Below, one piece after another: positions 31,554 through 41,009 of a DNA stretch of 64,000 nt. Within the stretch, counting starts at the first letter, position 1. Each line of letters starts with the position of its first letter. Source of the DNA: Candidatus Thorarchaeota archaeon. Its GTDB lineage: Archaea; Asgardarchaeota; Thorarchaeia; Thorarchaeales; Thorarchaeaceae. Made by a program: the position numbers and the translations under genes. The DNA lies in contig JBHLQM010000002.1 in the NCBI GenBank assembly GCA_048884785.1, forward strand, positions 33,044 to 97,043, given 5' to 3'. The notes below the pieces were generated by a model that saw only the letters and a program-made list of their open reading frames with translations, did not search any database and was not told the origin of the DNA.

Positions 31554-32615
31554 ATGGCAGGGGAGAAGATGCCTTCACAGAATAAGAACGATTCAATAGC
31601 TGACTTAGAAGAAAAGGTGGACAGTCTTTCAGCTGAGATTACAAGGATATCCGAATTCCTGGAGGCAATCCCTTCAATTGCCGCAAAGGTCGATGAACTT
31701 CGCGAAGAAGTAGACGGAATCAAAGAGACCATTGAAGGTGTTGACGGCAAGTTTGAAAATATTATCACTGGAACTGACCTAGACACTCTGGACAAGAAGG
31801 TAGATGATATTTCATCCAAGATAGAAGAGGTGTCTGAGAGTACAACTGAGATTAAAAAATCCAAGGAAACTGAAGTCCTATTCAAGAAAGTCGATGATTT
31901 GCTAATTGCAATTAAAGACGTAGAAGAACAAATCGAAGACTTGGGTAAGTCCTCAGCTATGGATGAAAAACTCGATGAATTGAAGGAAAGCATCTCATCC
32001 CTTGTTACAACAGTTGAAACTCTCGGTGGCTCTGACTCCAATGAGGTAATTGGAAAGAAAATTGATGATCTTCAGCAATATGTCGCGGGGCTCTCAGCGC
32101 TTGAAGAAAAGGTTGATGAAATGGCAACAGCTTTTTCCGAAACAAAAGAGATTGTTGGCATCATTGTAAGGCAGCTAGACGATATTGAGCGGAAATACAA
32201 CAAGGCATCTGAAGACATAACTGAAGCTGCAGAATTAGTGAGATCTGTTCTTGAGGCTGGAGGTGTTCCTGCTAATTCTACTCAAACAAGAACACCAAGC
32301 AAAGGAAAAACAGAAGAAGATGAAGCTGTCCTGGAGGCATCTGCCGCAACTGTAGACGAACTCATGAGTGCATTACTCTCAAAGGTCCGACCCCAAACAG
32401 AAGCCCAAATGATGGCAAAAGCGCTCGAAGATGTTCGTGACAAACTCACAGGTATGATAGATGGCCATACACCTATCATATTTCAATTTGGAAAACGGGC
32501 AAGAGAGCTGAAATCATACCCTCCAACTGCCACACTCAACGAGAATGACATCGCTCGGCTAAACAAAGAGATACGAGATTGGTCTGCAAAACTCAAAAAG
32601 ATTGCATCTGAGTGA
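31554..32615 (+). CDS. Acidic coiled-coil protein with C-terminal helical bundle
   Basis: Heptads over about 230 aa, low-complexity linker, about 85-aa helical C-domain. Confidence 0.75.
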   Translation: MAGEKMPSQNKNDSIADLEEKVDSLSAEITRISEFLEAIPSIAAKVDELREEVDGIKETIEGVDGKFENIITGTDLDTLDKKVDDISSKIEEVSESTTEIKKSKETEVLFKKVDDLLIAIKDVEEQIEDLGKSSAMDEKLDELKESISSLVTTVETLGGSDSNEVIGKKIDDLQQYVAGLSALEEKVDEMATAFSETKEIVGIIVRQLDDIERKYNKASEDITEAAELVRSVLEAGGVPANSTQTRTPSKGKTEEDEAVLEASAATVDELMSALLSKVRPQTEAQMMAKALEDVRDKLTGMIDGHTPIIFQFGKRARELKSYPPTATLNENDIARLNKEIRDWSAKLKKIASE

Positions 32616-32793: not shown

Positions 32794-33597
32794 ATGGAGC
32801 TACAGAAGCATAATCGAGAACTTGCGGAAAGAATCCGCCTTCTGAATATTCCCGCGGACAGTCAGCTAGCCAAGGAGCTCATGCAACTGCATGAAGCAAA
32901 ATGTGTGTCTTGTCAAGAAGACCGCTTGAGCTGCACAGTCCGTCCTGCGTGTAAAGAACGTAATTTTCTAAACATGCTAATCGAGCTTGGCGTGGAACCG
33001 CAAGATCTTCCCAGTTTCTGTTACTCTGTTTATCTTGATCAGCTAGGTCGATACATACTAGAAAAGAAAGGGCGAGGTATGATTAACCGACGATTACCAA
33101 TCAAAGATCTATTGTCAACTCTAAAAGTCAGCTCAATAAGACATTTCAACTCTAGATTTACCAAGGAATGGGATAATTACCATTCATCAAGTATAAAGAA
33201 TCAGCTCCTCGTTTCGGGAAATGATTACTTGTTCCATTTTGATTTCACTAGGGGTGTAGTAATAATCAATCCTTATGAAACTCCGATATTAGATTTTGAT
33301 CATTTGAAACTCTTTGTAGAGGTTCTTTCAAATAGATATGGCGTTGCTTGTGAACTCAAGGACATTACATCAAATTGGTGGGAACTACGATTCTCCCTGA
33401 GTACTAATATCGACAATGAGAAAATACAAACAGCTAGTCAGAAATTCTCCAAACGTTTCCATTCCCATCAGAGTATACTATCTCGAGAATTGCCCGAGAT
33501 TCGTGCTGAGATTATAGCTGACGCAACCCAAGATCCCATTGTGGTAGAGGATCTAATCCAGACTTTCAAAATGGTGGCTGATCTAAAATCAGCATAA
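32794..33597 (+). CDS. Hypothetical protein with N-terminal Cys cluster
   Basis: HEAKCVSCQEDRLSCTVRPAC...SFCY. Confidence 0.7.
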   Translation: MELQKHNRELAERIRLLNIPADSQLAKELMQLHEAKCVSCQEDRLSCTVRPACKERNFLNMLIELGVEPQDLPSFCYSVYLDQLGRYILEKKGRGMINRRLPIKDLLSTLKVSSIRHFNSRFTKEWDNYHSSSIKNQLLVSGNDYLFHFDFTRGVVIINPYETPILDFDHLKLFVEVLSNRYGVACELKDITSNWWELRFSLSTNIDNEKIQTASQKFSKRFHSHQSILSRELPEIRAEIIADATQDPIVVEDLIQTFKMVADLKSA

Positions 33598-37533: not shown

Positions 37534-37998
37534 CTACAGCTTGGCTTCGAAGATGATGCCATCTTCGTTGCCATAGTAGTTTACTTGCCGACCTATAGAT
37601 TTCATCCCTAGCTTGGTATAGAGTGCTTGCGCCGCAAGGTTGCTCTCTCGAACTTCTAAAATGCAGGATTTAGAATTCGCCCTTCGAAGAGAATTCAAAA
37701 TATGATGAATTAATAGACTAGCGTACCCTTTTCGCCGGTCACCTTCTTGAATAGCCAAGTTCAGAATATGACCTTTTTTTTTCTTGATATCAAACTCCCA
37801 GATGGCATATCCAATGACCTTTGAATGAAGCTCCCCGACAATCATTCTTACTTCCCCGTCCCTATCCATTAATTTCCCGTTATTTCTAGCCAAAAGCAGA
37901 AAGGGCGACGAGTCCCACGGATCACTGAAGCACTCTGATTCGATTCTCAAAATATTCGGGAGGTCCTTCATCATAGCCTGTCTAATAACTAGCTGCAC
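37534..37998 (-). CDS. rimI: RimI/Ard1-family N-acetyltransferase
   Basis: IESECFSDPW, HILNLAI, RRKGYA, LEVRESN, NYYGNEDG. Confidence 0.88.
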   Translation of the reverse strand: MQLVIRQAMMKDLPNILRIESECFSDPWDSSPFLLLARNNGKLMDRDGEVRMIVGELHSKVIGYAIWEFDIKKKKGHILNLAIQEGDRRKGYASLLIHHILNSLRRANSKSCILEVRESNLAAQALYTKLGMKSIGRQVNYYGNEDGIIFEAKL

Positions 37999-38022: not shown

Positions 38023-38376
38023 TCACTCTCTTTCAAGTGATACTCTTGACCCACAACGGTGACAATATTCTGAATTGTAAAGAAGGGGAGAGCCACAAAT
38101 CTGACATTCAATGGTCCTTGCGTTTCTTGAATCAGTTTCGATTCTCATCGGCCCGAAAACACCTCTACTCATTTGCCAAATGCACATCATCATCATGAAG
38201 AGAGCAACACCCAGAATCACAATTCCAAATGGTCCTGGATTTCCAAAGAAGAAAAAGGGAAAGATAAAGAAGAAGCCTGATGAAACACCATCCATAGCAA
38301 GCACAAGAAGAATGGCTCCAGTAATAACGAGCAGGAAACCAGCCAATATGAGAATCTCGCTCTTTGAATTCAACAT
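38023..38376 (-). CDS. Small membrane protein with C-terminal zinc ribbon
   Basis: Two TMs; CQICG...CHRCG. Confidence 0.65.
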   Translation of the reverse strand: MLNSKSEILILAGFLLVITGAILLVLAMDGVSSGFFFIFPFFFFGNPGPFGIVILGVALFMMMMCIWQMSRGVFGPMRIETDSRNARTIECQICGSPLLYNSEYCHRCGSRVSLERE

Positions 38377-38536
38377 CTAATTTTCTTTCCTTCACAGAGC
38401 GACTAACTCCAGCTTAACTTAATACTTTGTATTCAATATCTGAAATGACCTCGCACAAGACATATCAATGTCTTGAGCAACAATTGAAAAGCAAGATAGT
38501 TACCAGTTCTTCTCAGAATCAAAGAGGGTTGTCAGA

Positions 38537-38992
38537 ATGGGCGGAAAGAAAAACGTTGAGGCAAAGACCAAGAAGAGGAAAAGATACCTCTTCAAAGTAG
38601 CAGTGGTTGGACCTGATGATTCCTTGCTCGAGGATGTTATGACAGTTGTGAATCAAGGAGCAGTATCCGTAGATGGAATAAGAATTGGCACGACAAAGAT
38701 GGAAACAGACGATTCTACCGTACGAGCCGTGACATGGTCTCCACGCCATTCTGCATTAGATGTTCTACTTGATGTCACCTATGCTGGTGCCAATGGGGCG
38801 GTGATAGTCCTACGGGATGCTGATCCGGAAATTGAAGTAATCTATAGGAATGAGATAAGAGAGCATCTTGGAAGTGGAACGCCCACGCGAGTTCTTTGTG
38901 TGGGCACTGAAATTGATAGATTTAAGCAGCACGAAATTCAGAACATGCTTGAAGAACTATTCAAAGAGATTCTCGAATCAAAAAGAAAATAG
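38537..38992 (+). CDS. Rab-like small GTPase fold with degenerate nucleotide-binding motifs
   Basis: YLFKVAVVG, DSTVRAVTW, TYAGANGAVIV, LCVGTEID align with Rab strands; no GKS or DxxG. Confidence 0.65.
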   Translation: MGGKKNVEAKTKKRKRYLFKVAVVGPDDSLLEDVMTVVNQGAVSVDGIRIGTTKMETDDSTVRAVTWSPRHSALDVLLDVTYAGANGAVIVLRDADPEIEVIYRNEIREHLGSGTPTRVLCVGTEIDRFKQHEIQNMLEELFKEILESKRK

Positions 38993-39067
38993 GCCAAAAA
39001 TCCATAATACCATGGTGATGGAAAGGCTTTTCTCCAAAAACTGATTGCTCGACAGCAGGTGCGAAGA

Positions 39068-40066
39068 ATGAGCTCAGAGCAGAATAGGCACGAGGAGCAT
39101 CAGAGGTCTGATGAGTACTGGATGGGCGTTCGTGATGCCCTAAGAATGGTTGACTCATTTATCAAATGGGCGAAAACCAACAGAGAACGGGCAAAGACCT
39201 TGGAGGAATTTCTCCACGAGGGATTAATTGCTGCTGCTAAGCGCTGTGAGAGCTGCCTCTCCAAGCAACTTGGAGTGAAATTTGCATCTGATGAGCCCCT
39301 TCCTGACATTGATTCGGTAGAGGAAACGGGGCCTTCTGAAACAGCACCTACTGAGCCAATTGAACCCGAGGAATCTCTAGAAGCAGCACCTCCAGAGATT
39401 GTCTTAGAGCCAGAGGGCAGCGAGGAATTCGAAGAGATTCCTATAGTTGTAGATATTGTGCCTGAATATGAGGCACCAAAGGATTCCTTTGATGATGCAG
39501 CTATTAGCATAGAATCAATTGGTTCCTCTGAAGGATCAATCTTAGATGAATCTCTAGATACTGGTGAGCCTCGAGAATTCAAAGATGATTTTAGCCTCTC
39601 AGAACCCGATTCATTGTTTGTTGAGCCGGTACCTGATGGAATAGACGTTACAGAATCAGAAGAAGAATCCGAATCTGATTTGGCTGATATCACAATTGAA
39701 GATGACAAAGAGGAAGAAGAGCCAATCCCGATAGAAGAAGATGAAGATGTTTTGGTGGATGACTCAGAAATCTCGCCTAGCAAAGCCGAAAGTGAACTTC
39801 CATATCCTCCGAGTTTTATTGAGCCTCCTGCACCTGAATTTCCTAAAGAAGAAGAAGCACATGACTATCCTTCTGAAAGAGCGAGAATCTGGAGTTCAAC
39901 GGATGAGCGACAACCGAGCGAGTTAATTCAGGACGAGGAGTCTGTGGATTTCAAGGATACAGAAACTGTCAAGTCGCCCCCTCCACCACCTCCCCCGCCT
40001 GTAGATGATGAGGAGAGTGAGGAAGAAAGAAGGCGGCGTGCAAGACGACTGTTCTTTGGAACCTAG
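39068..40066 (+). CDS. Acidic, disordered, proline-rich protein
   Basis: Small N-terminal helical domain with CESC, long E/D/P/S tract, P8, C-terminal EEERRRRARRLFFGT. Confidence 0.75.
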   Translation: MSSEQNRHEEHQRSDEYWMGVRDALRMVDSFIKWAKTNRERAKTLEEFLHEGLIAAAKRCESCLSKQLGVKFASDEPLPDIDSVEETGPSETAPTEPIEPEESLEAAPPEIVLEPEGSEEFEEIPIVVDIVPEYEAPKDSFDDAAISIESIGSSEGSILDESLDTGEPREFKDDFSLSEPDSLFVEPVPDGIDVTESEEESESDLADITIEDDKEEEEPIPIEEDEDVLVDDSEISPSKAESELPYPPSFIEPPAPEFPKEEEAHDYPSERARIWSSTDERQPSELIQDEESVDFKDTETVKSPPPPPPPPVDDEESEEERRRRARRLFFGT

Positions 40067-40178
40067 AGATTGATGATCTTGGGTTAGGCTATGGTCCAAA
40101 TCTCCTTTCGCCATTAATGGTTCTAGTGCTGGTCCCTCATTCGACTCACTTAAAGCCTTGTGACTACCACCTGAAACT

Positions 40179-41009
40179 ATGGACCAATTGTCATATGTTT
40201 CCGTGGCGATAAAGCGAACTCCAAAGGAGGCACTATCAACAGCTCTCTCAAAATTGCCTGTTCCTCTTTCAATATCGCCGGATGTGAAAAGAATTGTTTT
40301 GAAGCCGTCAATCTATGATCCAGAGCTTCCAGGAAACACTTCTTTCGATATGATGAGTGCAGTAGTTGACTTCTTCAAACAAGTCTCTCCAATCAGCATT
40401 GTTGAAAGCGACAATCCTGTTAGAACTGCTGAAGAAGCATATTCGAAATGCGGATACAAGGCGTTTCTGGAACAAGGAGTGGAATTGGTCAATCTCTCAA
40501 GTGCTACGGGAGGAATCCCCTTTGGAGGTATTCTCGAAAACGAATTGGTCCCGCCTATACTAGGCGCTAATAGATATCTGATCAATGTTGCAGCCCTAAA
40601 ACATTCAGATTCTACTCACATAGGAGCTGGTATCAAAAACCTATTTGGTTTAATCTCACGGAGAGATAAGGACCAATATCATAGTAGATTGGCGGATGTC
40701 CTAGTTTTATTACTACAGAAACTCCCTCCTGTTTTATCGATAGTCGACCTCACCAGGTATGTTGTTGGTGATCGAAGAAATGCTCAGGTGCATGAAGTAG
40801 GCGGAGTTGTAATAGGCACTGATGCCCTAGCAGTTGATTCGTATTGCTGTGAGCTTCTAGATATTGATCCATTGGAAGTTGATTATATCCAAAAAGCCTA
40901 TAGATTAGGGTTAGGGGAAGCCCTCTTGGAGCGAATCAGAGTGCTCGGAACGGAGCACCAAATTGAGAAACTCAAAACAATCTTTAGAAATATCCCTGTC
41001 CGCAAGTGA
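40179..41009 (+). CDS. DUF362-family protein
   Basis: IVLKP, INVAALKH, GIKNLFGL, IGTDALAVDS. Confidence 0.8.
   Translation: MDQLSYVSVAIKRTPKEALSTALSKLPVPLSISPDVKRIVLKPSIYDPELPGNTSFDMMSAVVDFFKQVSPISIVESDNPVRTAEEAYSKCGYKAFLEQGVELVNLSSATGGIPFGGILENELVPPILGANRYLINVAALKHSDSTHIGAGIKNLFGLISRRDKDQYHSRLADVLVLLLQKLPPVLSIVDLTRYVVGDRRNAQVHEVGGVVIGTDALAVDSYCCELLDIDPLEVDYIQKAYRLGLGEALLERIRVLGTEHQIEKLKTIFRNIPVRK

Follow-up and report, generated by a model that had tools for sequence, protein, structure and literature searches.

A Rab-derived pseudo-GTPase with lost GTP-binding motifs and a conserved partner gene in Thorarchaeota

We describe a small Thorarchaeota protein that keeps a Rab-like fold, has lost all five GTP-binding motifs and is encoded directly ahead of a second conserved gene. 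What is new is an archaeal pseudo-GTPase that occurs throughout a lineage, carries two deletions and has a dedicated partner. Taken together, the evidence makes it quite probable that the protein is a nucleotide-independent, Rab-derived pseudo-GTPase, a constitutive binder that is paired with the downstream gene product and possibly tethered to a membrane. The gene lies in a stretch of 64,000 nucleotides from a Candidatus Thorarchaeota archaeon (contig JBHLQM010000002.1), which we call the window. It is an ATG-initiated frame encoding 151 aa, with an SD-like AGAGGGT 7 nt upstream. A first-pass annotation of the window had read this frame as a Rab-like protein, and all the strings it quoted are found there (Table 1). 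In the protein, a basic tail (residues 1–16) is followed by YLFKVAVVGPDD (17–28), VDGIRIG (45–51), WSPRHSALD (67–75), TYAGANGAVIV (81–91) and CVGTEID (121–127). Scanning 38300–40300 for promoters and terminators gave nothing informative with the bacterial-type models used, whose scope does not extend to archaeal promoters.

Table 1. Features of the pseudo-GTPase gene, its partner and their surroundings (window coordinates unless a locus is named).
Feature	Position	Strand	Basis or remark
CDS, Rab-fold pseudo-GTPase, 151 aa	38537..38992	+	ORF, fold and family evidence
Polybasic disordered N-tail, residues 1–16, 8 K/R	38537..38584	+	pLDDT <50 for residues 1–11
beta1 and degenerate, shortened P-loop, YLFKVAVVG-PDD-SLLE	38585..38632	+	GP invariant, without GK[ST]
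Switch I / RabF1 equivalent, VDGIRIG	38669..38689	+	G2 Thr replaced by Val45; D46 and G47 invariant
G3 / switch II equivalent, WSPRHSALDVLL	38735..38770	+	SP-RH vs DxxGQ, 1-residue deletion
beta5 and former G4 site (PTRVLCVGTEID)	38882..38917	+	without NKxD
Lone C-terminal helix, superposing on the end of the Rab G domain (~alpha5)	38918..38989	+	alpha4, beta6, G5 (SAK) absent; from predicted secondary structure, aligned ranges (model 14..151 vs Rab 5..175) and sequence alignment
Conserved partner CDS, 332 aa	39068..40066	+	78 nt downstream, same frame, own SD-like AGGTG
Partner N-terminal domain, residues 17–69, two long helices predicted	39116..39274	+	most conserved part, 63–78% identity
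Octa-proline run ending the acidic disordered linker	39977..40000	+	linker residues 76–303: 78 D/E, 11 K/R, 28 P
Invariant C-terminal motif EEERRRRARRLFFGT, predicted helix	40019..40063	+	pLDDT 70–75
353-aa coiled-coil protein	31554..32615	+	weak BLOC1_2, HAUS1 and COG6-type coiled-coil matches
267-aa protein	32794..33597	+	no Pfam match
1300-aa protein, N-terminal TrmB/MarR-type winged helix	33630..37532	+	~1000 aa of apolipoprotein-like coiled coil
GNAT acetyltransferase	37534..37998	-	
Small membrane protein with C-terminal zinc ribbon	38023..38376	-	
Borrarchaeum tandem paralogs	L007 4291–4731 and 5001–5441; L065, L066		

The Rab resemblance noted at first reading goes beyond chance. Compared as a single sequence with all PDB chains, the protein was matched by phmmer to 22 Rab11 chains (E 0.014–0.04, aligned residues 16–125), and HMMER set a gap of 4 residues exactly at the P-loop, opposite the Rab11 G-V-G-K. 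The family profile found Rab23 in the PDB with E 0.007, and Ypt32 was also matched. An hhalign comparison with 12 canonical Ras-family proteins encoded in the same genome gave E 5.7e-5 over 91 columns (probability 66%) and paired S-P-(gap)-R-H with D-x-x-G-Q, with no N/K/D opposite NKxD. When we ran the profile over a survey of 400 genomes of the phylum, frames of ~185 aa were matched as well (E 1e-6 to 1e-12); the best such frame, at E 7e-13, is a canonical Asgard GTPase with GDGGVGKTS, WDIAGQ, GNKIDL and TSAK. Another Asgard family contributes a bridging protein of 316 aa: its P-loop (VVGPRE) is shortened in the same way, the profile matches it at E ~1e-13, and it passes the Pfam cut-offs for both Ras (26.1 vs 21.6 bits) and Roc (32.5 vs 27). 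For the 151-aa protein itself, Pfam gives nothing above threshold and DUF7382 only below it, and the gene goes undetected by Pfam Ras in the genome scan. On the strength of these alignments, we regard descent from Rab-like small GTPases as secure.

The predicted structure agrees. AlphaFold2 with the family alignment gave a model of pLDDT 73 and pTM 0.70 with the element order beta1-alpha1-beta2-beta3-alpha2-beta4-alpha3-beta5-helix. The Ras-type scaffold proposed by the first-pass annotation is strongly matched: Foldseek returned at least 500 PDB matches at E<=1e-3, the best all Rab/Ypt proteins (Ypt32 with 1.1e-7, then Rab8, Rab1 and Rab11), and exhaustive VIA alignment to 48,161 representative chains gave Z 15.6 for Ypt32 and Rab23 with an rmsd of 2.5–3.0 A over 134–139 residues. 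Rabs fill the first five VIA rows; MglA, Ras, Rho, Ran and Arf come next. A structural search with the fused pseudo-GTPase–partner model described below reproduced the Rab-fold match. Model residues 14–151 span Rab residues 5–175, and the lone C-terminal helix lies where alpha5 sits. About 35 Rab residues have no counterpart, an assignment that comes from aligned ranges and the alignment rather than from coordinates; they comprise the P-loop insert, one switch II residue, and alpha4 and beta6 with G5. The Ras superfamily has a six-stranded mixed sheet in the order beta1-alpha1-beta2-beta3-alpha2-beta4-alpha3-beta5-alpha4-beta6-alpha5. Of this topology, the core through beta5 and one terminal helix match Rabs; since alpha4 and beta6 are absent, the fold is a truncated version of it, a truncation that goes beyond the initial reading. 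By its motifs the protein is not a Rab, yet its best sequence and structure matches are Rabs, and it is therefore Rab-derived or Rab-like.

Directly downstream and on the same strand, a partner gene encoding 270–400 aa was found in 50 of 51 assessable loci. Counted over all 53 loci it was seen in 50, two of the misses being contig ends and the third a MAG of 0.57x coverage in which the frame is broken and a TnpB-like gene inserted. The gap between the two genes has a median of 58 nt (range 0–151), and the NCBI locus tags of both families are consecutive in many MAGs. The N-terminal segment of the partner, with its invariant YW.GV.D.L...F...L...LG, is better conserved than the pseudo-GTPase; a polyproline run is present in most members, and the C-terminus carries an invariant E..R.R.LFF (...RRLFFG). 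In a divergent lineage (38% identity), a partner of 141 aa retains only the N-terminal segment and a C-terminal RRRRLFF, and it is still adjacent although the pseudo-GTPase gene is inverted. That so short a partner keeps both ends, and its place despite the inversion, argues for the two ends as the functional core and for selection on the gene linkage. The gene order of the region is conserved throughout Thorarchaeota, so the adjacency partly reflects shared ancestry. Searches with the partner gave no Pfam domain and no relative of solved structure; all that matched were huntingtin constructs, through polyproline, and CHD5 below threshold. No fused pseudo-GTPase–partner protein was found among proteins of 266–2000 aa, which counts as weak evidence. 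Arg makes up most of the C-terminal motif, and its amphipathicity is weak. We rejected it as a PIP box by sequence, the spacing Qxx[LIM]xx[FY][FY] being absent. The low-coverage MAG is locus L028, the only one to lack the partner apart from the contig ends; here a 728-aa TnpB/IS605 OrfB-like gene (3548–5734, minus strand) lies just downstream of a frame-broken pseudo-GTPase.

The surroundings of the pair are conserved as well. In every Thorarchaeota locus examined, the giant TrmB coiled-coil protein is encoded upstream of the two genes at a constant position, and the 353-aa and 267-aa genes that precede it are syntenic in other Thorarchaeota. The zinc-ribbon and GNAT genes run divergently from the pseudo-GTPase and are still beside it in the rearranged locus L009. 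Borrarchaeum-type genomes have two tandem pseudo-GTPase paralogs beside rpl15e (ribosomal protein L15e) and RNase P subunit genes, with no partner gene nearby. In other Asgard families, the P-loop-deleted domain bears an extra C-terminal extension of 60–170 aa. Extensions of 60–100 aa (L079, L080, proteins P0132 and P0135) share a conserved (F/Y)Y(I/V)D..G...G.(I/V)PL(F/Y) and a Lys-rich tail, and Pfam finds no match in them; some of the C-terminally extended forms have ...PLF... and a K-rich tail at their end. A variant of 316–333 aa, seen in six genomes of one Asgard family (L083 325–1275), has VVGPREE for its P-loop, keeps IWD, still reaches the Pfam thresholds for Ras and Roc and carries a Cys-containing C-terminal domain of unknown kind.

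The polybasic N-terminus pointed out at first reading is conserved in its basic character, not in its sequence: among 40 orthologs, the up to 16 residues ahead of the core hold a median of 7 K/R and 1 D/E. Orthologs with a weak N-tail carry a K-rich C-tail instead. An N-terminal MGG as a myristoylation signal was rejected, Gly2 varying among orthologs (MSPK, MAPK, MTPT); myristoylation of this kind is a eukaryotic modification. A nucleic-acid- or ribosome-associated protein, with the Rab fold as a mere scaffold for a basic tail that binds RNA or DNA, would explain why a K/R-rich tail is conserved at one or the other end. It would also suit the Borrarchaeum paralogs, which adjoin rpl15e, RNA-binding protein and RNase P subunit genes, and the TrmB-HTH coiled-coil protein conserved nearby. 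We consider it unlikely all the same, because strong acidity marks the folded core (median net charge -11), the partner with its D/E-rich linker is very acidic too and thus ill suited to RNA as to DNA, and the Thorarchaeota neighbourhood is without translation genes.

The pseudo-GTPase contains none of GK[ST], DxxG, NKxD and SAK. Instead of the GxxxxGK[ST] of G1 there is GPDD, in a P-loop that is 4–6 residues shorter. Val45 aligns with the G2 Thr of switch I in Rab11 and in the genome's own GTPases, S68-P69-(gap)-R70-H71 stands opposite the D-x-x-G-Q of G3, the end of beta5 is without N/K/D for G4, and the protein stops before the beta6/SAK element of G5. Only remnants of the RabF motifs are left (the G of IGVDF, the W and Y.GA). 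This is a GTPase fold whose G motifs are lost, that is, a pseudo-GTPase. The protein most likely cannot bind or hydrolyse GTP, a nucleotide-free state that we infer from the motif loss. With all five nucleotide-binding motifs and alpha4/beta6 gone, it is most likely a constitutive protein-binding module, and it probably acts as a fixed scaffold, not as a molecular switch.

Some atypical GTPases tolerate the loss of a single motif, and the protein could in principle still bind nucleotide through a non-canonical pocket. Its language-model neighbours include the atypical GTPases RabL5/IFT22 and Arl16, IFT22 and RABL3 are among the structural matches of the fused-model search, and invariant acidic residues (D28) are found at the former P-loop. 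Such a pocket is nevertheless very unlikely here, as five motifs are lost together, the shortened P-loop is without Lys or Ser/Thr, and the base-recognition element beta6/G5 is deleted; we know of no GTPase that binds guanine nucleotide without any of these elements. Still less credence can be given to a convergent fold, that is, to a generic Rossmann- or flavodoxin-like alpha/beta protein without GTPase kinship. Three-layer alpha/beta sandwiches are common and the pLDDT of the model is moderate, but the best structural matches are exclusively TRAFAC GTPases with an antiparallel beta2-beta3 hairpin, sequence-only searches find Rab11, Rab23, Ypt32 and canonical Asgard GTPases independently, and a sister form passes the Pfam Ras threshold.

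The family comprises more than 150 clusters (90% identity) with 48–76% identity to the query. Nearly all members are Thorarchaeota proteins named 'hypothetical protein', and none has a Pfam domain. Across an alignment of 43 members, 23 residues are invariant, and they concentrate in YLFK.TVVGPDD.LLE, VDGIRIG, SPRHSALD.LL, GA.G..IVL, DPE.E..YRNE.RE..G and PTR. The motif replacements are invariant or nearly so in the 43 orthologs and in 25 wider members. The 'degenerate' motifs are thus the most conserved parts, the opposite of what is expected under recent decay. SP.H takes the place of DxxG in the Thorarchaeota orthologs and W.P in distant members; the latter (23–45% identity) all keep G-P at the P-loop and have W/M-x-P-x instead of DxxG. 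The first-pass annotation had claimed the loss of the G1 GKS, the G3 DxxG and the G4 NK and had named orthologs with intact motifs as the sign of recent decay. The loss is borne out, with substitutions that are family-wide, and no ortholog has intact motifs, GP being invariant in all aligned members down to 23% identity. Its reading as an archaeal small pseudoGTPase is supported by this motif loss together with the Ras fold.

One pseudo-GTPase copy faces 34 Pfam-Ras matches in the source genome (3.6 Mb, 91% complete). Of the 85 genomes in its taxonomic family, 74 contain a strong match, in nearly all cases one per genome, and the 11 genomes without one are 62–93% complete. Among species-level genomes there are 53 loci labelled Thorarchaeota or close, plus Borrarchaeum at 32–35% identity. 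The P-loop deletion is common to Borrarchaeum and three other Asgard families, and this deletion therefore predates their radiation. As judged from the aligned sequences, the motifs were lost long ago and their replacements are under selection, so that recent decay does not apply. The idea of a chance ORF or of a GTPase pseudogene that decayed recently, for which the missing Pfam match might speak, is refuted by conservation and has practically no chance of being right: the frames are intact across the family with its invariant residues, the gene is single copy in most related genomes, and members down to 23% identity share the substitutions.

The two genes share a frame in the window and in 11 other loci; with the stops read as Gly, they give a chain of 509 residues that we co-folded. 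For residues 41–80 of the pseudo-GTPase (switch I, interswitch, switch II), the pLDDT went from 54/61/60/53 to 68/76/83/65, an uncontrolled rise obtained with 12 paired rows, a shallower alignment than the 43 used for the pseudo-GTPase alone. The gain in confidence for the switch-equivalent region is suggestive. The N-domain of the partner is predicted as two long helices (pLDDT 53–73) and its C-terminal motif as a helix (pLDDT 70–75) within an otherwise disordered tail. We also considered the LFF peptide of the partner as a beta6 strand supplied in trans and rejected it: it is a helix in the co-fold, and the Rab superposition stops short of the partner, so that the terminal helix is no substitute for the missing alpha4/beta6.

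Rabs bind effectors via their switch/interswitch surface and hold helical Rab-binding domains. In the pseudo-GTPase, conservation peaks along what used to be switch I, the interswitch and switch II, and on the alpha3 face. The protein descends from the Rab-like small GTPases expanded in Asgard archaea and has kept the core from beta1 to beta5 and the terminal helix. We propose that the invariant two-helix N-domain of the partner binds the frozen 'effector face' in the manner of a Rab-binding helical hairpin. More speculatively, the basic tail of the pseudo-GTPase and the basic-hydrophobic C-terminal helix of the partner may anchor the two proteins on an anionic surface, a membrane being the likeliest, and the acidic, proline-rich linker could be a flexible spacer or a recruitment arm. 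One may go further and imagine a permanently 'on' Rab-effector module, with the hairpin on the switch face, the basic ends on the membrane and the polyproline arm recruiting profilin-actin or another cytoskeletal factor. We hold this full picture to be rather unlikely. If it were true, membrane-cytoskeleton adaptors would have a prokaryotic forerunner, and a pseudo-GTPase scaffold would be described for the first time outside eukaryotes.

No known organisms are more closely related to eukaryotes than Asgard archaea, whose expanded sets of small GTPases are read as precursors of membrane trafficking. From such a set, one Asgard lineage evolved a stable pseudo-GTPase and kept it as a near-universal single-copy gene, with a dedicated partner that has eukaryote-style linear motifs (acidic disorder, polyproline and a terminal basic-hydrophobic helix). 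Two families of more than 150 and 234 clusters, now called 'hypothetical protein', become recognisable to annotators, and the pair is small and soluble-looking, hence directly testable in vitro. Our literature search for pseudoGTPases with Asgard or archaea found no description of the family, and inactivated GTPases are not mentioned in the Thor-Rab structural work and the asCOG survey (Tran 2024; Liu 2020). In the literature searched, pseudo-GTPase innovation of this kind is documented for eukaryotes only (CENP-M, p190RhoGAP).

Compared with the Asgard Rab-like GTPases (Thor-Rab, Thorarchaeota SMTZ1-45, PMC10933270) and with Rab11/Ypt32, Rab23 and Rab8, the pseudo-GTPase has the same fold and strand order. 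It shares with Rabs the YLFK start of beta1, the G of T-I-G (RabF1), the W before G3, the Y-x-G-A (RabF4-like) and the I-P before beta5. The 151-aa protein has no C-terminal Cys that could be prenylated, as is the case for Thor-Rab (PMC10933270). Unlike Rabs, it has lost G1–G5, its P-loop is 4–6 residues and its switch II one residue shorter, and alpha4/beta6 are deleted; the core is ~135 aa vs ~170 in Rabs, and Pfam Ras misses it. The partner invites a comparison with the membrane anchor of B. subtilis MinD, KGMMAKIKSFFG (PMC13537761): it ends in basic residues followed by LFFG (...RRLFFG vs ...KSFFG), in a stretch predicted to be helical. The likeness is only one of a short pattern; the partner's motif is rich in Arg and of weak amphipathicity, and the protein is no ATPase. 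Among eukaryotic proteins, CENP-M is a kinetochore pseudo-GTPase (Basilico 2014, cited in PMC10211241). Both are small, stand-alone Ras-superfamily folds, non-binding by their motifs, and CENP-M serves as scaffold for a dedicated partner complex, the kind of mechanism that we propose for the archaeal protein; CENP-M differs in belonging to the CENP-HIKM complex of eukaryotes. It is absent from the matches listed in the sequence (phmmer, profile) or structure (Foldseek, VIA, fused model) searches. As no sequence or specific structural link was detected among these matches, the motif loss is most likely independent of that in CENP-M, and no relation to CENP-M or to the p190RhoGAP pG domains is detectable beyond the superfamily. 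The latter domains, pG1 and pG2 (Stiegler and Boggon 2017, cited in PMC10211241), are GTPase folds that lack G motifs and do not bind nucleotide. They sit inside a large eukaryotic multidomain protein, whereas the pseudo-GTPase described here is a stand-alone archaeal protein with an operon partner.
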